Shown in pieces: positions 40,660 to 46,926 of a stretch of 64,000 nt of DNA. The stretch spans positions 747,685 to 811,684 of the forward strand of contig JAHQJS010000007.1 in the NCBI GenBank assembly GCA_019057385.1, in the 5' to 3' direction. The notes under the pieces are model-generated. The model did no database searches. It saw only the letters and a list, made by a program, of their open reading frames with translations, and was not told the origin of the DNA. The position numbers and the translations under genes are program-made. The DNA is from Candidatus Borrarchaeum weybense (GTDB lineage: Archaea; Asgardarchaeota; Sifarchaeia; Borrarchaeales; Borrarchaeaceae). Each line of letters starts with the position of its first letter. Within the stretch, counting starts at the first letter, position 1.

Positions 40660-42387
40660 GTGAAAACGATTCAATTAGAAGCCATTGAGGAAACACAAAC
40701 AGATTCACCAGAATCGAAAGAGAGTATCATCCAAAATATGGAGGATATATGTAAAAGAATCGATCTAAATCGAGTTAGAAAAACAATTGAAGAATTATTT
40801 AATCAACCAAATGTTGCACATATTTCACCTGAACAAATCAAAGTAAAAGCAGAAGTATGTGGTAGAAAAACGAAATACCGTAATTACAATTTTATCTCTG
40901 CTGTAAAAAATCGGTCAGCCGGTCTTACGGTTTATCTTGGTAGTGCGGATGTGATTCAATCCGAATTAACTCCAAAACAGAGAGAAATATTAGCTCATGC
41001 TCCTGAAACGATTGATACTGTGTTAAAATATCTGCAGAAAGCACCGTTATTGTGTAACGTCAGAACTATGGGAAATAATCCAGAATTCACACCGACTTGT
41101 ACTCTTTATGTTTCTTTAGCTCGACCAGATTCCGTACGATTAGCTCACATGATGAACGGATCTTTGTTTGAAAATAGAGAAATGAAACCTCCGAGTCTGT
41201 ATATAATAGATCTTCCAGAATGGCATGAGAAAGATAGACAAGTAATTTGTCTACCTGAGATTGGCGTGACCTTCGTTTTAGGATCCGATTATTTTGGTGA
41301 AGTTAAGAAAGGGTTTTTGCGAATGGCTATGTGGTATGCCAAACAAAAGGGAATGCTAGGACTTCATGCAGGCGCGAAGTTAATAAAGGCGAGAGATCAC
41401 AAGACAGGAAGAATTAATAGATTTAATATGCTTATTTTTGGTTTAACCGCTACGGGCAAGACAACACATTCCTGCCATACACATGACTTGAATGAGCTTG
41501 GAGAAGGCATTGAGATAGCGCAGGATGATTTTGTCGCTGTAAAAAAAGATGGGTCAGTATTGGGAACTGAATGTGGCTTTTTCCTTAAAACAGAGGGGCT
41601 TACCTTACAGGATCAACCTTTGCTTTACAATGCGCTTATAAAGCCTCATACGACACTTGAAAATGTTTTAATTGATTATTTTGATGATGTTGATTTCTTA
41701 GACAACACTATCACAGGGAATGGACGCGCAGTAATCTTAAGGGAGGATTTAGATAAAGATTATATTAGTTCAGAAATCAACTTACCACCGCTTTCGAACG
41801 TTGATGGTGTGATCATACTGATGATCACTAGACGAAATACAGTAGTTCCAATCGTCTCAAAATTAAATGTAGAACAAACTGCTGCCGTTTTCATGCTTGG
41901 TGAATCAATAGAAACTTCTGGAAGTAATCCAGAAAGGGCTGGTGAATCTATTAGAGAAGTAGGGACAAACCCTTTCATAATCGGCAACAAGGCCGAAGAA
42001 GGCAATCGATTCTATGATATCCTCAAAAAATACCCAGGTAAAATCCATTGTTACTTAGCCAACACAGGTGGCGTAGGTGAAATAATGGAAAAAGATGCAA
42101 ACGGGAAGAAGATAATAAAACAAAAAGTATTGCGCGTCGAAATTTCAGAAATGGCAGCAATAATTCGAGGAATTGCAAGAAATTCCATTGAATGGGAAGA
42201 TGAACCATATTTCGGAGTTCAAGTACCCAAAAATGTACCAGACATTGATATTCGGAAATTTAATTTAGAACGATTTTACGCCAAAGAGCAGATTCTCACT
42301 TTAGTTCAAAATTTAAAACGAGAAAGGAAGAAATATATAGAGAAATTTCCAGAGCTTTACGAACAAATTAAAAACGCATTTATATAG
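40660..42387 (+). CDS. pckA: Phosphoenolpyruvate carboxykinase (ATP-type family)
   Basis: GSDYFGEVKKGFLR, LGLHAG, FGLTATGKTT, QDD, ENV, NGRA, NPF, NTG. Confidence 0.88.
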   Translation: MKTIQLEAIEETQTDSPESKESIIQNMEDICKRIDLNRVRKTIEELFNQPNVAHISPEQIKVKAEVCGRKTKYRNYNFISAVKNRSAGLTVYLGSADVIQSELTPKQREILAHAPETIDTVLKYLQKAPLLCNVRTMGNNPEFTPTCTLYVSLARPDSVRLAHMMNGSLFENREMKPPSLYIIDLPEWHEKDRQVICLPEIGVTFVLGSDYFGEVKKGFLRMAMWYAKQKGMLGLHAGAKLIKARDHKTGRINRFNMLIFGLTATGKTTHSCHTHDLNELGEGIEIAQDDFVAVKKDGSVLGTECGFFLKTEGLTLQDQPLLYNALIKPHTTLENVLIDYFDDVDFLDNTITGNGRAVILREDLDKDYISSEINLPPLSNVDGVIILMITRRNTVVPIVSKLNVEQTAAVFMLGESIETSGSNPERAGESIREVGTNPFIIGNKAEEGNRFYDILKKYPGKIHCYLANTGGVGEIMEKDANGKKIIKQKVLRVEISEMAAIIRGIARNSIEWEDEPYFGVQVPKNVPDIDIRKFNLERFYAKEQILTLVQNLKRERKKYIEKFPELYEQIKNAFI

Positions 42388-42543
42388 AAGGAAAATATTT
42401 TTCGCCCTTATTCAGGCGTCCATTTTTTTCTAATATTTGATACTTGTGCTGCTTTTCAATATTGTATCCATAAGTATACCGCAGTATACCGATTAATTCC
42501 CTTAAATTGGTATCTTATAGGATAGTTCCAATTTAGGATTAAC

Positions 42544-43398
42544 TCAGTCTTTTAAATGTTCAATGACATAATCTAGTATTAGTTCTGGAATTTCAACGAA
42601 AGTTGTTTCCATCAATCCTTTAAATTCTACTGTATGGTTGATCTCATTGACAACTAATCCTTCTTTATCTTCCAATAGATCAACGCCAAGAATTCCGCCT
42701 CCAACAACTTTCGCAGCCTTTAAACTCAATTCTTTAATCTCTGGAGTAATTTCGCAAATCTTTGCTGTGCCACCTCTCGCAATATTTGTCCGCCAGTCGC
42801 CACCATTTGCTTTTCTATACATAGCAGCAACCACATCATCTCCGATAACAAAAGCCCTGATATCTCTTTTTGAGGGAACCTTTTCCTGAATATAATGAAT
42901 TTTATGAAGTGGTCCTAACATTTCTTTATGCTCTATAACTGATGTTGCTACGATTTCATCGTTAATCAAAGAAACGAGACGCCCCCAAGAGCCTACTAAA
43001 GGCTTAATAACAGCAGGATAACCTACATCATTCAAGGATTCAAGAGCAGAATCTTCTGCGAATGACACCAAAGTTTTTGGAGTTGGGATATTTGCTTTTG
43101 TTAACGCTAAAGTTGTCAAGAGTTTATTACCACAGGTTTGTGCTGTTTCAAAGGAATTGATGACATGTAATCCTTTGTTTTCAAGGATTGCTGATAGATA
43201 TAACCCTCTAAAATAACTTACGCTTCTTTGGAGTAAAACATCATATTCCTGTAAATCCGAATTACAATCGGTTGCCGTTAGAGAGAGCCTTTTGGCATCA
43301 ATCAAGTTCAAATCTATTTTTTTCTTCGCTGCAGCCTTTACAAGTTGCTTTTCATTCCAGCTAATTCTATCATATATTAATCCAATTTTCAGTTTCAA
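42544..43398 (-). CDS. LysX/ArgX-type ATP-grasp [LysW]-amino acid ligase (RimK family); the Arg leader suggests an ArgX role
   Basis: LQRSVSYFRG, CGNKLLT, KPLVGSWGRLV, RDIRAFVIG, WRTN, EINHTVEFKG. Confidence 0.88.
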   Translation of the reverse strand: MKLKIGLIYDRISWNEKQLVKAAAKKKIDLNLIDAKRLSLTATDCNSDLQEYDVLLQRSVSYFRGLYLSAILENKGLHVINSFETAQTCGNKLLTTLALTKANIPTPKTLVSFAEDSALESLNDVGYPAVIKPLVGSWGRLVSLINDEIVATSVIEHKEMLGPLHKIHYIQEKVPSKRDIRAFVIGDDVVAAMYRKANGGDWRTNIARGGTAKICEITPEIKELSLKAAKVVGGGILGVDLLEDKEGLVVNEINHTVEFKGLMETTFVEIPELILDYVIEHLKD

Positions 43399-43620
43399 AA
43401 CCCCCTTTAGAGGTATTAAATCAAAAAACTTCCAAGAGGGTCGTTAATAGGTGAAAGAACGAATTTTAGAACAACTACAGAGCCCACATGATTTGACTCT
43501 ATAAGATTTATCTAAAACAAGTCTTGGCTTACACGAGTTGAAACCAAGTTTTCAACTTTAGCCTATTAACGACGATTTTCCAATGCAAATTTTTTTCATC
43601 GTCGTCGTCGTCGTCGTCGG
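43399..43620 (-). promoter_or_regulatory. Structured attenuator-like 5' leader with mutually exclusive helices
   Basis: Perfect 12-bp helix between 43562-43573 and 43440-43451; competing 8-bp helix between 43569-43576 and the Arg codons; internal hairpins at 43536-43557 and 43464-43517; U6 tract at 43423-43428. Confidence 0.7.
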
Positions 43621-43691
43621 ATCCCCACATCTAAAACAAGATATTCGTTTTCAAAAACAGAGTTTCCCATAAAAACTTCATCATAATCCAT
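43596..43691 (-). CDS. Leader peptide MDYDEVFMGNSVFENEYLVLDVGIRRRRRRR (31 aa, seven CGA codons before the stop)
   Basis: GAGGTG SD at 43698-43703, 6 nt before ATG; open frame to (CGA)7 TGA; lies ~200 nt upstream of lysX/argX on the same strand; below the ORF-track length cutoff. Confidence 0.8.
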   Translation of the reverse strand: MDYDEVFMGNSVFENEYLVLDVGIRRRRRRR

Positions 43692-43848
43692 ATAATCCAC
43701 CTCTAGATCCGACTTTTTATTTTGTTGCACATTGCTCTTATGGTTTTTAAGATTTTTGTTTTTGTATATTTAGTGTGAAGTTCAATACAGCAAAAAAATG
43801 AAAAAAATCAAGATTTGGATTGAGTCATATCAAAAAGTGAAGAAAAAG

Positions 43849-45111
43849 TTAAGTTGGAGTCCAATTTTTCATTGCTCTTCGAAACATTTTATTTAGATCG
43901 TCTTCTTTAATAGGAACCGGATTTAAATAGAGTAATCGTTGTATTTTGAACGTATCTGCGGCTAAACGAGCAATATATTCTTCCTTTACGTTAAATGGTG
44001 GCGCTTCAAGGCCATATGGAATTCCAATATCCTTTGATAATTGAATAATTGCGTTTACGCTTTTTTGTGCAGCATCCATAAGCGAAAGATCTTTCACATT
44101 TTCACCTAGTAACTGGGCTATACGTGCAAAACGCTCTGGTGCACCTGGTATATTGAATTCCACAACTGCAGGAAGTATTACAGCGTTAGTAATGCCGTGT
44201 GGTGTATGCCATTGACCCCCCACGGGATAAGCCATGGCATGAACAGTACAAACTCCCGCGTTTGTGAACGCTGCACCAGCTAGGAACGACGCTAATAACA
44301 TGCCACTCCTTGCCTCTAGGTTGTTACCATTATTAACAGCTAGACGTAAGTACTTTCCAATTAGTTCGATAGACTTTTCGGCAAATATATCCGTTAGTTC
44401 AGTTGAGCCCGTAAAAACAGGTCTTTCTGGTGGAGTTGCTGGCTTGGGTCGTGTCGTATATGGTCTAACGAAATATGCTTCAATGGCGTGAACAAGGGCA
44501 TCCATGCCTGTTGCTGCTGTAATGGAGGGGGGCATCGTAATGGTCAACAGAGGATCTAAAATCCCAAGTGTGGGTCTGCCACAGAATAGTGCCCCCTTTA
44601 CTAATTTTTCTGGGAAAGTTATAACTGAAGAAGGAGAGGTCTCACTACCGGTTCCTGCAGTAGTAGGAACAGCTATCAGTGGTTTAAATGGTCCTGGAAT
44701 TTTTTTTCCTTCGCCAAAAGGTGCTGGCATGTAGTCGAGAATTTTGCCACCGTGTGTGAGCACTAAAGCAATTACTTTAGCTGAATCTATAGCACTTCCA
44801 CCACCCAAAGCTACAAATCCATCAAAATTACTATCTTTAAAGTTGTCAATACAGTCTTGCATAGATTTTAACGAAGGTTCTGGTTCCACTTTGTCCCAGA
44901 CCGTAAAAGTGATATTTTGCTCTTTAATAGGTTGCACAATTTTGTCAACAAGACCAATTTTAACCATTACAGAATCAGTCACGATAAGACAATTCTCTAT
45001 TCCTAATTTTTTTAGATCCCAACCAATTTCCGATGCAACATCTAGTCCAAATTTGATATTAGACATAGCAAATTGCCAGGCAGTATCTATTGGTAAGCTA
45101 TCTATCGGCAT
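43849..45111 (-). CDS. Iron-containing ADH family, hydroxyacid-oxoacid transhydrogenase-like
   Basis: GGGSAIDSAK, PTTAGTGSE, GMDALVHAIEAY, insertion RPKPATPPERPVFTG, HAMAYP, PHG. Confidence 0.88.
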   Translation of the reverse strand: MPIDSLPIDTAWQFAMSNIKFGLDVASEIGWDLKKLGIENCLIVTDSVMVKIGLVDKIVQPIKEQNITFTVWDKVEPEPSLKSMQDCIDNFKDSNFDGFVALGGGSAIDSAKVIALVLTHGGKILDYMPAPFGEGKKIPGPFKPLIAVPTTAGTGSETSPSSVITFPEKLVKGALFCGRPTLGILDPLLTITMPPSITAATGMDALVHAIEAYFVRPYTTRPKPATPPERPVFTGSTELTDIFAEKSIELIGKYLRLAVNNGNNLEARSGMLLASFLAGAAFTNAGVCTVHAMAYPVGGQWHTPHGITNAVILPAVVEFNIPGAPERFARIAQLLGENVKDLSLMDAAQKSVNAIIQLSKDIGIPYGLEAPPFNVKEEYIARLAADTFKIQRLLYLNPVPIKEDDLNKMFRRAMKNWTPT

Positions 45112-45301
45112 TTTATGCCTCCTTTAAGAATTTATTTCGGATTAAATGCTTGCTATATGTAAAAGACCTTAATAAAAGTGACGTAAAAATATAAGAGCAT
45201 TAGCCCGAAACGACTAACTTCACCCGTAATTAATAAGCTGCTATTTAAATCAATTTTTCAAGTAATCATATAGTTATTTGGAACAAGAAAGTAGAAAAAA
45301 T

Positions 45302-46558
45302 CTACTTAAGTGTCCAATTTCGCATGGCTTTTCGAAATAACTTTTTCAGATCATCCTCGATTATCGGAACTGGATTTGCACCCAAAAGCCGTTGTACTTT
45401 GAATGTATCTGCGGCTAAACGTGGAATGTCTTCTTCTTTTACACCAATCGCTTCGAGGCCGTATGGAATGCCAATATCTTTTGACAATTGGATAATTGCA
45501 TTTACGCTCTTTTGTGCAGCATCCATAGCCGAAAGATTTTCAATATTTTCACCTAGTAAATGGGCTATACGTTTAAAACGTTCTAGTGCACCGGGTATAT
45601 TGAATTCAACAGATGCAGGAAGTAAAACTGCATTTGTTACACCATGCGGAGTATGAAATTGTCCACCAACTATAAGAGCCATTGCATGAACTACGGAAAC
45701 ACCTGCATTACTAAAAGCGACACCAGCGAGGAAAGAGGCTAATAACATACTACTTCTAGCTTCTAGATCATTACCATTAAAAACAGCTCTACGTAGATGT
45801 TTCCCAATTAATTCGATGGCACGTTCAGCAAACAGATCCGTCAGTTCTGTAGCTCCTGTATACACCGGCCTCTCAAGAGGCGTCTTGGGTTTCGGTCGAG
45901 AAGTATACGGTCGCACCCAATATGCTTCGATTGCGTGAACTAGAGCGTCCATACCTGTGCTTGCTGTAACAGAAGGGGGCATTGTCACCGTCAATAGAGG
46001 ATCCAAAATACCAAGCGTTGGTATTCCGCAGAACAAAGCTCCTTTCACTTGTTTTTCCGGAAATGAGATAACTGACACAGGAGTAGTTTCACTACCAGTG
46101 CCTGCTGTAGTAGGAACAGCAATCAATGGTTTAGAAGGACCTGGAATTTTTTTTCCTTCTCCAAATGGAGGTGCCATGTAATCAAGAATTTTACCACCGT
46201 GCGTGAGCACCAAGTCAATTACTTTGGCGGAATCGATGCTCGAACCACCACCTACCGCTACAAAACCATCAAAATTACTATCTTTCAAGCTGCCAATACA
46301 GTCTTGCATAGAATTCAGGGAAGGTTCTGGCTCTACCTTATTCCAGATCATTACATCTATATCTTGTTCTTCAATAACGTGCTTAATTTTATCCACTGTA
46401 CCAATTTGAGCCAATACAGGGTCTGTAATGATAAGGCAATTCCTTATTTCTAAACGTTTTAGATCGTATCCAATTTCAGACGCAACTCCATATCCAAACT
46501 TTATTCGAGACATCTGTAAATCCCAAACGGTATCAGTAGGTAATTCTGATAGTGACAT
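45302..46558 (-). CDS. Iron-containing ADH family, HOT-like; tandem paralog
   Basis: Highly similar to 43849..45111; start ATG 46558 after GGAGG. Confidence 0.88.
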   Translation of the reverse strand: MSLSELPTDTVWDLQMSRIKFGYGVASEIGYDLKRLEIRNCLIITDPVLAQIGTVDKIKHVIEEQDIDVMIWNKVEPEPSLNSMQDCIGSLKDSNFDGFVAVGGGSSIDSAKVIDLVLTHGGKILDYMAPPFGEGKKIPGPSKPLIAVPTTAGTGSETTPVSVISFPEKQVKGALFCGIPTLGILDPLLTVTMPPSVTASTGMDALVHAIEAYWVRPYTSRPKPKTPLERPVYTGATELTDLFAERAIELIGKHLRRAVFNGNDLEARSSMLLASFLAGVAFSNAGVSVVHAMALIVGGQFHTPHGVTNAVLLPASVEFNIPGALERFKRIAHLLGENIENLSAMDAAQKSVNAIIQLSKDIGIPYGLEAIGVKEEDIPRLAADTFKVQRLLGANPVPIIEDDLKKLFRKAMRNWTLK

Positions 46559-46584
46559 ACTTACGCCTCCTCTAAAACGGCAGT

Positions 46585-46926
46585 TTACTTCGCTCTCCAA
46601 GAGTGAACTAATGATTTCAATTGTTGCAATATGTTTCCAAGATCTCTTCCTTTTTGAGTGAGAGAATACTCTACCCTTACGGGTGTGGTCGGGATGACGT
46701 CTCTAACGATTAACTCCATTTTTTCAAATTGCTTCAATCGTTTGGATAGAGTTTTAGGACTTAAACTATTCAGTACGTCTAAAAACTCATTGAATCGCAT
46801 TATTTCAGACTTCATAAGGTGCATTATAAGGAATATGCTCCATCTTTTTCCAAGAAGGGACAAGAGTTCACACCCACAACCAGGAAAACAATCCTCCATT
46901 CCACACTCGCAACTCAATTCTGTCAA
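46585..46926 (-). CDS. HxlR family winged-helix regulator with Cys-rich N-terminus
   Basis: LLGKRWSIFLI, RFNEF, SPKTLSKRLK, PVRVEYSLTQKG. Confidence 0.9.
   Translation of the reverse strand: MTELSCECGMEDCFPGCGCELLSLLGKRWSIFLIMHLMKSEIMRFNEFLDVLNSLSPKTLSKRLKQFEKMELIVRDVIPTTPVRVEYSLTQKGRDLGNILQQLKSLVHSWRAK

Follow-up and report, generated by a model that had tools for sequence, protein, structure and literature searches.

Leader-peptide attenuation is a textbook bacterial mechanism: in the trpL, hisL, thrL, leuL and pheL leaders, a short open reading frame (ORF) led by a Shine-Dalgarno sequence (SD) contains codons for the end product of the pathway, and stalling of the ribosome on these codons replaces the helices 1:2 and 3:4 by the helix 2:3. 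A similar layout is found upstream of a gene for an ATP-grasp ligase of the LysX/ArgX family in the Asgard archaeon Candidatus Borrarchaeum weybense, on the minus strand of a stretch of 64,000 nucleotides (GenBank assembly GCA_019057385.1, contig JAHQJS010000007.1, positions 747,685 to 811,684; hereafter the window). There, an upstream ORF (uORF) of 31 codons ends with seven CGA arginine codons, directly followed by the stop, and the RNA behind it is predicted to alternate between a fold in which the SD of the ligase gene is masked and one in which the masking helix is lost. On the basis of conservation, complementarity and folding, the element is interpreted here as an arginine-sensing, ribosome-stalling leader-peptide attenuator that would read the charging of tRNA-Arg, an interpretation to which a probability of about 0.6 is assigned.

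No archaeal leader-peptide attenuator was found in full-text literature searches, in agreement with a preliminary description of this DNA, which had considered such attenuators essentially uncharacterised in Archaea. The bacterial leaders are the closest known systems, and the proposed sensor logic and an arrangement of four segments, the first within the ORF and each complementary to the next, are common to both. The Borrarchaeum leader differs from the bacterial attenuators in its Asgard host and in the amino acid concerned; in enterobacteria, arginine is controlled via the ArgR repressor. Further differences are the 3:4 helix, which would mask an SD and contains a U tract in its loop, whereas the bacterial counterpart is a GC hairpin followed by a U run; the presence of a 100-nt invariant domain between segments 2 and 3; and the position of the regulatory codons, which abut the stop. 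A short ORF with its own ribosome-binding site before a biosynthetic gene is present, at the sequence level, in 9/9 homologs. An intrinsic terminator (GC hairpin then U run) in the place of helix 3:4 is absent, the U6 tract being located in the loop of the SD-masking helix (C':SD, see below) and a stretch of U3-4 following the helix; without a hairpin-plus-U terminator, the element is not a strict member of the bacterial attenuator type.

In the translational attenuation of ermC and cat, a ribosome stalled on the leader remodels the mRNA and frees the downstream SD, and the Borrarchaeum element is proposed to work alike; however, the ermC/cat stall depends on an antibiotic and on a specific nascent peptide, whereas in Borrarchaeum it would be caused by a lack of charged tRNA-Arg and the peptide is unconserved. 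The fungal arginine attenuator peptide (AAP, arg-2/CPA1) resembles the Borrarchaeum leader in being encoded by a uORF before an arginine gene, and it makes expression respond to arginine, as is proposed here. AAP has a conserved sequence and halts ribosomes when free arginine is abundant, and it contains no run of arginines. A conserved arrest peptide of this type was not found in Borrarchaeum, where the body of the peptide is 53% variable and the Arg codons are conserved. Amino-acid-responsive control of the LysW pathway in an archaeon, as proposed here, is represented by LysM in Sulfolobus; LysM is a DNA-binding protein that acts at the promoter, whereas the Borrarchaeum control would depend on translation of a leader whose RNA can fold in alternative ways. 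Among arginine systems, orf34 of Salmonella speF comes nearest; there, pausing at two consecutive Arg codons at low arginine selects an alternative mRNA fold, and where the uORF also opens a structure hiding the downstream ribosome-binding site (PMC6386406); unlike the Borrarchaeum leader, it is bacterial, contains only two Arg codons, involves Rho and RNase G and controls polyamine synthesis. One-codon runs in very short ORFs are also known from the mycobacterial poly-cysteine uORFs which, by the title of the source, are cysteine-responsive attenuators and which control the downstream biosynthetic genes (bioRxiv 10.1101/834739); as described there, they are leaderless, bacterial and cysteine-specific, unlike the Borrarchaeum leader.

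The preliminary description, made from the sequence alone, had located on the minus strand the SD GAGGTG, the ATG at 43691, the 31-codon ORF with CGA x7 and TGA, and a spacing of about 200 nt to the ligase gene, all of which were found in place, the distance from the uORF stop to the ligase gene being 197 nt; repeat search and pair counts likewise retrieved the 8-bp pairing of segment B with the CGA run, the perfect 12-bp helix B:C, the pairing of C' with the SD and the U6 tract at 43423-43428. The elements of the locus, in the direction of transcription, are:

43744..43752, minus strand: candidate promoter element TCTTAAAAA, similar to a B recognition element (BRE)/TATA box, with a predicted transcription start site near 43722
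43706..43713, minus strand: segment GUCGGAUC of the 5' untranslated region (5'UTR), 5' arm of helix P0, part of an 8-bp perfect inverted repeat (I4)
43697..43702, minus strand: SD of the uORF, GAGGTG, 5-6 nt before the ATG, invariant in 9/9 leaders
43596..43691, minus strand: leader ORF MDYDEVFMGNSVFENEYLVLDVGIRRRRRRR, 31 codons plus TGA (ATG at 43691, TGA at 43598-43596)
43629..43640, minus strand: CUUGUUUUAGAU inside the uORF, exact copy of the 5' arm of P2 at 43510-43521 (direct repeat D2)
43599..43619, minus strand: segment A, putative sensor, seven CGA (Arg) codons, (TCG)7 on the plus strand
43556..43576, minus strand: segment B, consisting of B1 AUCGUCGU, partner of the last part of the CGA run, and CGUCGUUAAUAGG, partner of C, invariant in 9/9 leaders
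43536..43557, minus strand: hairpin 1, arms AGTTGAAA/TTTCAACT, 8-bp stem and 6-nt loop (inverted repeat I2)
43458..43523, minus strand: helix P2 with hairpin 2, from the RNAalifold consensus
43434..43457, minus strand: segment C (invariant in 9/9 leaders) running into the anti-SD-like C' GACCCUCUU
43423..43428, minus strand: U6 tract, candidate signal for oligo-U termination of the archaeal type, enclosed in the C':SD loop, T6-T7 in 9/9 leaders
43399..43414, minus strand: local anti-SD ACCUCU (43414-43409) and lysX SD AAGGGGGUU (43407-43399)
42544..43398, minus strand: LysX/ArgX-family ATP-grasp ligase gene, 284 amino acids, monocistronic (Pfam and NCBIfam)

The genome of the window (G000) has an assembly of 4.18 Mb with 37% GC, the window being located on a 905-kb contig. 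Its archaeal nature, already proposed, is borne out by its nearest species-representative relative, Candidatus Borrarchaeum yapensis, which belongs to the same genus and to the Asgard lineage; a database copy of the ligase is named from a metagenome-assembled genome of the Promethearchaeota. The lineage is uncultured, and no RNA run with the locus was listed on look-up. Nine leaders were aligned, namely G000, a genus relative (G004) and seven homologous loci or contigs (L058, L059, L060, L061, L065, L106 and L107) retrieved from NCBI and JGI assemblies via protein and DNA-pattern searches; another locus, L073, is G004-like. The identity of the ligase to the window protein is 98% in G004 and 86-90% in the seven further loci, and lysX is 86-99% identical across the leader-bearing clade; below 86% there is a gap down to the canonical paralogs, at about 55%, which indicates that the paralog and its leader are confined to a narrow clade.

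Throughout the nine homologs, three of which have a different upstream gene or none called, the SD and the ATG are present, and the frame stays open over 28-31 codons. As anticipated for orthologs, 5-7 Arg codons precede the stop in every case; the Arg codon is always CGA, and the stop, TGA in seven leaders and TAA in two, follows the run directly. The number of copies varies between five and seven with the frame kept in 9/9, and not regardless of the frame, the pattern that had been named as arguing against a leader peptide; variants of -3 and -6 nt in the length of the run occur also in metagenome contigs (fragmented contigs from four DNA runs), and divergent short contigs in runs X5 and X9 match just 43556-43616. 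The other two frames contain 0-5 stops, with at least one in every leader. Only one indel falls inside the uORF, an in-frame 6-nt deletion; single-base indels lie outside it, immediately upstream of the ATG or within the A-run that follows the stop. In the 24 codons that precede the CGA run, 53% of the columns are variable, distributed as 13/15/10 by codon position with no periodicity; for lysX of the same sequences, the corresponding values are 61% when four-fold sites are considered and 51% for third positions. Thus, frame and Arg codons are conserved and the peptide drifts near the synonymous rate, which is the signature of a leader peptide and not of a protein. The arrangement also exceeds chance, because trinucleotide repeats of at least five units are rare, just 16 in the 4.18-Mb genome, and because it is kept in eight other homologous loci. 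The 3' end of the G000 16S rRNA, GGATCACCTCCT, matches the SD of the uORF; an SD motif accompanies about 29% of the crude G000 gene calls, with a peak of SD-to-start spacing at 6-8 nt, and these two figures together indicate that SD-led initiation is in use in this genome.

An alternative poly-Asp frame (MWGSDDDDDDD..., 43630-43529) was rejected, its tail frame being changed in G004 and a start being absent in L060. The only other (GAC/CGA)n repeat of the genome, of 12 units (L001:1491-1604 and 1902-2066; G000 contig C4 near 1118300), encodes the poly-Asp core of a 37-amino-acid protein that begins with a Lys-rich stretch and contains Trp in acidic motifs (…EDWDDDD…EDW), and small D/E/W-rich ORFs similar to it are present nearby and elsewhere.

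The RNA that follows the uORF is even more constrained. About 17% of the columns are variable in the non-coding leader after the stop, and none of the 68 columns formed by the 19-nt B block, the 25-nt junction and the 24-nt C block; with a neutral variability of 61%, this invariance is not due to chance. The complementarity between A and B1 (8 bp, 43598-43605 with 43569-43576, inverted repeat I3) joins the end of the run and the U of the stop (ACGACGAU) to B1 (AUCGUCGU), while B and C form an inverted repeat of 18 nt with 89% identity (43440-43457 with 43556-43573, I1) and a perfect 12-bp core. Since the AACGAC of C pairs with the same GUCGUU that is paired by the CGA run, C and the run compete for B. 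Finally, C' GACCCUCUU (43442-43434) pairs with the lysX SD AAGGGGGUU (43407-43399) over 9 bp, including G-U, in 9/9 leaders. The RNAalifold consensus is a three-way domain in which the 12-bp helix B:C encloses hairpin 1 and the long helix P2 with hairpin 2, as in the early proposal of two further hairpins within B:C. The stem of hairpin 1 is invariant except for its top pair and the loop is variable in most homologs; P2 and hairpin 2 exhibit one compensatory change from G-C to A-U, several G-U pairs and few mismatches. Single-sequence folds have z-scores of -2.5 and -3.0. No Rfam 15 family matches at E <= 1 in the region 42000-45500, and a covariance model of the 144-nt domain (43577-43434), run on 151 genomes of the phylum, matches only this locus in G000 and G004, with no second copy in G000 and none in the 149 other genomes. 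According to the repeat search, two stretches of the uORF, CTTGTTTTAGAT and TTGAAAAC, recur without change as 5' arms in helices further downstream, and the uORF copy CUUGUUUUAGAU could compete for UCUAAAAU.

The leaders were folded by computing partition-function probabilities with the CGA run free, masked as a mimic of the stalled ribosome, or recoded to AGA. With the run free, the probability of B:C is at most 0.21 in six of nine leaders and that of C':SD is 0.88-1.0 in five of nine; masking of the run raises B:C to 0.58-1.0 in 6/7, and recoding to AGA yields a B:C probability of 0.57-1.0 in 7/9, with C':SD lowered to 0-0.5. The minimum-free-energy structures swap likewise, A:B and C':SD being exchanged for B:C, and in the B:C state the lysX SD pairs only with the local ACCUCU. 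The switch from A:B to B:C that the preliminary description had envisaged is therefore reproduced by folding. The need of the CGA run to pair with B would also account for the exclusive use of CGA as the Arg codon; in the Thr and Ser leaders described below, by contrast, mixed codons are used.

The homology among the loci begins about 60 nt before the ATG, in a block that contains TCTTAAAAA; the upstream gene encodes an Fe-alcohol dehydrogenase (Fe-ADH) in some loci and a DUF2461 protein in others, and none is called in L060, and the block CAAAAATCTTAAAAACCATAA.AGCAATGTGCAA is kept in loci of both the Fe-ADH and the DUF2461 type. The block, conserved even where the upstream gene differs, is promoter-like, and TCTTAAAAA is likely the BRE/TATA. 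The 5'UTR segment GUCGGAUC complements positions 43616-43623, with which the GATC-CGA run begins (its first eight bases); this segment adjoins the SD in 7/9 aligned leaders and is displaced by a miniature inverted-repeat transposable element (MITE) in G004, as also in L073, which stands outside the alignment. This MITE-like element, of about 318 nt, separates the uORF and its SD from the promoter-like block (L039:1894-2211 in G004); its target duplication, ATGAGGT, has regenerated the SD in front of the uORF. Another copy is found in G000, on contig C7 near 356240-356420, where it creates a spurious MFTHHHH mini-ORF.

The proposed mechanism is as follows. The lysX/argX paralog would be transcribed with a leader of about 330 nt, and the ribosome, bound to the strong SD, would translate the 31-codon uORF, as its conservation suggests. 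When Arg-tRNA is plentiful, the ribosome would pass the seven CGA codons, stop at the adjacent UGA and leave; the bare CGA run would then pair with the 5'UTR and with B1, B would be occupied, and C' GACCCUCUU would pair with the lysX SD, so that in arginine excess the gene would be off, possibly with a contribution of termination at the U6 tract. A shortage of Arg-tRNA, in contrast, would make the ribosome stall on the CGA run and cover it, leaving B free to pair with C over 12-18 bp; B:C would close the three-way RNA domain, the C':SD helix would be lost, the SD would be held only by the weak local hairpin, and the ligase could then be translated, probably from a weak CUG start. The anatomy of the sequence and its conservation are directly observed. 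The switch of folds is predicted by modelling; its response to arginine and its kind of output are what we infer.

The downstream gene belongs to the LysX/ArgX ATP-grasp ligases: its product contains the LysX pre-ATP-grasp domain PF22626 (4.7e-17) and the RimK ATP-grasp domain PF08443 (3.1e-34), and it scores 322.5 bits against the TIGR02144 LysX equivalog model, with a cut-off of 275.6. The preliminary assignment to lysX/argX is thus correct as to the family (TIGR02144 above cut-off, PF22626, PF08443); not so its choice of the TTG for the initiation region, which is not conserved. Indeed, at the position of this TTG (43398), L059 and L060 have TTA, while L065, L106 and L107 have TAG, and the TTG is only 2 nt from the SD GGGGG. 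An invariant CTG at 43392-43390 is 8 nt from GGGGG, the usual spacing in G000, and a start at this codon gives MKIGLIYDR, to be compared with MKTIGLLFDR at the N-terminus of the canonical paralog. The ligase start is therefore probably this CTG, a non-canonical CUG initiation codon; being weak, it would make the gene especially dependent on access to the SD, and start-codon calls in the Borrarchaeum lineage need care. The metagenome contig L073 (L073:1756-2046, minus strand) has lost U6 tract, local anti-SD, SD and TTG through a 39-nt deletion that spares the CTG; this locus may be either a natural deregulated or dead variant, or else an assembly error.

A canonical LysW cluster is located on another contig (G000 C8:49643-56127) and comprises an Lrp-family gene, two tandem lysW genes, both ending in EDWGE, and lysX, lysY, lysZ, lysJ and lysK; an agmatinase/arginase-like gene adjoins it. 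The ligase of the window is an extra paralog, 56% identical to the canonical lysX, and it stands alone, as indicated by the convergent phosphoenolpyruvate (PEP) carboxykinase gene (PEPCK) downstream of it. In the LysW pathway, as known from work on Sulfolobus, the later enzymes serve lysine and arginine alike. Arginine-specific control has therefore to act on the glutamate-LysW ligase (ArgX), and, with the canonical cluster elsewhere, the stand-alone paralog would be the natural point for it.

A scan of the genome for codon-run uORFs identified the CGA uORF as a clear outlier, most other matches being noise; candidates with runs of Leu, Ile, Met and Trp codons were discarded since they precede unrelated genes (transposases, a carboxyltransferase, a tRNA synthetase), and the MFTHHHH candidate lies inside the MITE. 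Four other leaders with cognate codons are present in the genus. The aspartate kinase gene is preceded, 97 nt upstream, by a 28-codon uORF ending in …PGTTTTY* (L086:326-412, plus strand; G000 C4:137125-137211), kept in 5/5 genus genomes with 4-5 Thr codons and synonymous ACG/ACA/ACT changes; it is followed by a hairpin, GGAGG, T5 and a second conserved uORF of 15 codons, whose stop overlaps the SD of the kinase gene. About 160 nt before argG, the uORF MTGMRYPGDRTRTR ends in DRTRTR and is followed by T8 (L099:256-300, minus strand; G000 C5:407505-407549); it is kept in 5 genomes with one synonymous change of CGC to CGT and has a conserved TTTATAAA box upstream, and it is a possible second arginine leader. 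A run of 6-9 mixed Ser codons closes the leader that precedes a gene of the ComB family (2-phosphosulpholactate phosphatase; L110:167-253, minus strand; G000 C5), which hints that this phosphatase acts in serine synthesis, and a 17-codon frame with four conserved TGG precedes the gene of a TrpB2-like PALP protein of 454 amino acids (L109:191-244, minus strand; G000 C5). The Ser and Trp leaders are each conserved in 3-4 genomes, the TTG start of the Trp leader being TTA in G004.

All five leaders have in common a TATA-like box (TTAAAA/TTTATAAA), cognate codons at the C-terminus and T5-T8 before the SD of the gene. This shared layout raises the prior for the arginine reading, and it also leaves room for oligo-U termination as the common output, with or without SD masking. 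Other arginine genes and other amino acids had been proposed as places to look for such leaders, and the outcome was mixed: an RTRTR* leader precedes argG, and no Arg-run leader was seen before carA or three OTCase/ATCase-family genes; similarly, Trp, as well as Thr and Ser, leaders exist in the genus, while the canonical lysW-lysX cluster showed no leader with a run of Lys codons, the Leu candidates belong to unrelated genes, and no leader is found before the leuA-like gene of the window. The chances are judged to be about even that the genus possesses a whole set of leader-peptide attenuators for Arg (argX, argG), Thr (aspartate kinase), Ser (ComB-family) and Trp (TrpB2-like), acting as tRNA-charging sensors with SD masking and/or oligo-U termination as output.

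Several observations weigh against the arginine attenuator. B:C and C':SD share just 3 nt (GAC) and coexist in the minimum-free-energy fold of G000; the predicted increase in mean SD accessibility is modest, from about 0.1-0.25 to 0.23-0.40; and in G000, L060 and L106 the preference in the free state is weak or different. The helices A:B, B:C and C':SD are invariant within a narrow clade and show no covariation, the sole compensatory pair being in hairpin 2; because of this invariance, covariation is uninformative, so that the B:C helix, for which covariation had been suggested as a check, is neither confirmed nor refuted by it in 9/9 leaders. The CGA run is also a slippage-prone microsatellite. 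As to the decoding of the run, tRNA-Arg(UCG) was not located, in a search where ARAGORN finds 17-32 tRNAs in an intron-rich genome and which is silent on decoding. The best solved relatives of the ligase are LysX/ArgX entries (3vpd, 222 bits; 1uc8, 208; 3vpb, 197) from the Protein Data Bank whose scores do not discriminate ArgX from LysX; ArgX is plausible for the paralog. Moreover, the approximately 100 nt of invariant RNA between B and C are unneeded for a simple attenuator, which hints at a further ligand or protein.

This last point speaks for placing the real sensor, for a metabolite, a tRNA or a protein, in the invariant 144-nt three-way domain (43577-43434), with the uORF only keeping the leader translated and unfolded and the Arg codons being secondary. 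The junction and the single-stranded parts match the helices in invariance, the z-score of the fold lies between -2.5 and -3.0, the ~100 nt between segments 2 and 3 would not be superfluous, and the Salmonella speF uORF combines several such roles (PMC6386406). However, the domain has no Rfam match and is confined to this locus in 2/151 genomes, and its role as sensor would leave unexplained both the 5-7 Arg codons complementary to B and the parallel Thr, Ser, Trp and Arg leaders, all without such a domain; this explanation is considered distinctly unlikely. Somewhat less so, though still improbable, is that the same sensor, stalling on the Arg codons, controls premature termination at the U6 tract (oligo-U, possibly aided by aCPSF1/FttA) and not SD masking, the stalled ribosome or B:C deciding on read-through. 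The T6-7 tract is invariant in 9/9 leaders, T5-T8 occurs between uORF and gene in every other cognate-codon leader of the genus, the stop always comes right after the regulatory codons, a position reminiscent of the control of a termination factor of the tnaC type, and archaeal polymerases terminate at oligo-T without a hairpin. On the other side, T5 runs occur also within the uORF, which means that oligo-T alone is not decisive, no stable hairpin lies directly before U6, and the conserved, strong C':SD pairing would be left without a role.

The perfect Watson-Crick complementarity and invariance of B and C would equally be expected of DNA bound by a protein, and the 18-nt inverted copies (43440-43457 and 43556-43573) could, with the other invariant blocks, be operators, for instance of the Lrp/LysM type with looping over 116 bp, the RNA pairing being incidental; an Lrp-family gene heads the canonical lysW cluster, and in Sulfolobus LysM, which is of the Lrp type, controls lys genes. 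Yet operators account neither for the conserved SD, ATG, frame and stop nor for the complementarities of the Arg run to B1 and of C' to the SD, and the conserved G-U pairs of hairpin 2 and P2 pair only in the RNA of the minus strand, which makes this alternative very unlikely. Slightly more doubtful still is an arrest of the ribosome at the stop by the nascent poly-arginine peptide, possibly in response to free arginine, as in AAP or TnaC, whereby the stall would signal excess. The Arg run is always directly before the stop, polybasic nascent chains and CGA repeats slow eukaryotic ribosomes, and the Asgard archaea are the closest relatives of eukaryotes; but the stalled fold drops the long C':SD helix and would turn the gene on, the wrong sign for feedback by excess arginine, the remaining peptide is unconserved, unlike that of AAP or TnaC, and the sister Thr, Ser and Trp runs fit tRNA-charging sensors. 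As for a functionless, neutral microsatellite in a long intergenic spacer, (CGA)n slippage, with 5-7 units among homologs and also within metagenome contigs, is what it would predict; nevertheless, none of the 9/9 loci has lost the repeat, its frame, its SD/ATG or its stop, the leader on its flank has diverged far less than neutral sequence would and such repeats are rare in the genome (16 of at least five units), and this possibility is hardly credible.

Upstream of the leader, an Fe-alcohol dehydrogenase gene ends at 43849; it is one of two tandem paralogs (420 and 432 amino acids) in the region 43849-46926, preceded by a gene for an HxlR-type regulator that overlaps the start of the second. 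Elsewhere in the genome, a tRNA called by ARAGORN (G000 contig C7:143743-143811) has the anticodon CUA and the label Pyl, and amber codons might sometimes be read through in the Borrarchaeum lineage.

If the attenuator set is real, ribosome-mediated attenuation would be seen in Archaea for the first time, and translation would have to be functionally coupled to the folding of mRNA or to transcription in those prokaryotes that are most closely related to eukaryotes. The arginine element, if it holds, would mean that Archaea also read tRNA charging via ribosome stalling, and its compact, testable RNA parts (uORF, B, C and anti-SD) would lend themselves to the study of how translation is coupled to mRNA folding and transcription in archaea. 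It would also indicate a way in which lysine and arginine control are separated in the shared LysW pathway, with only the committing ligase being regulated.

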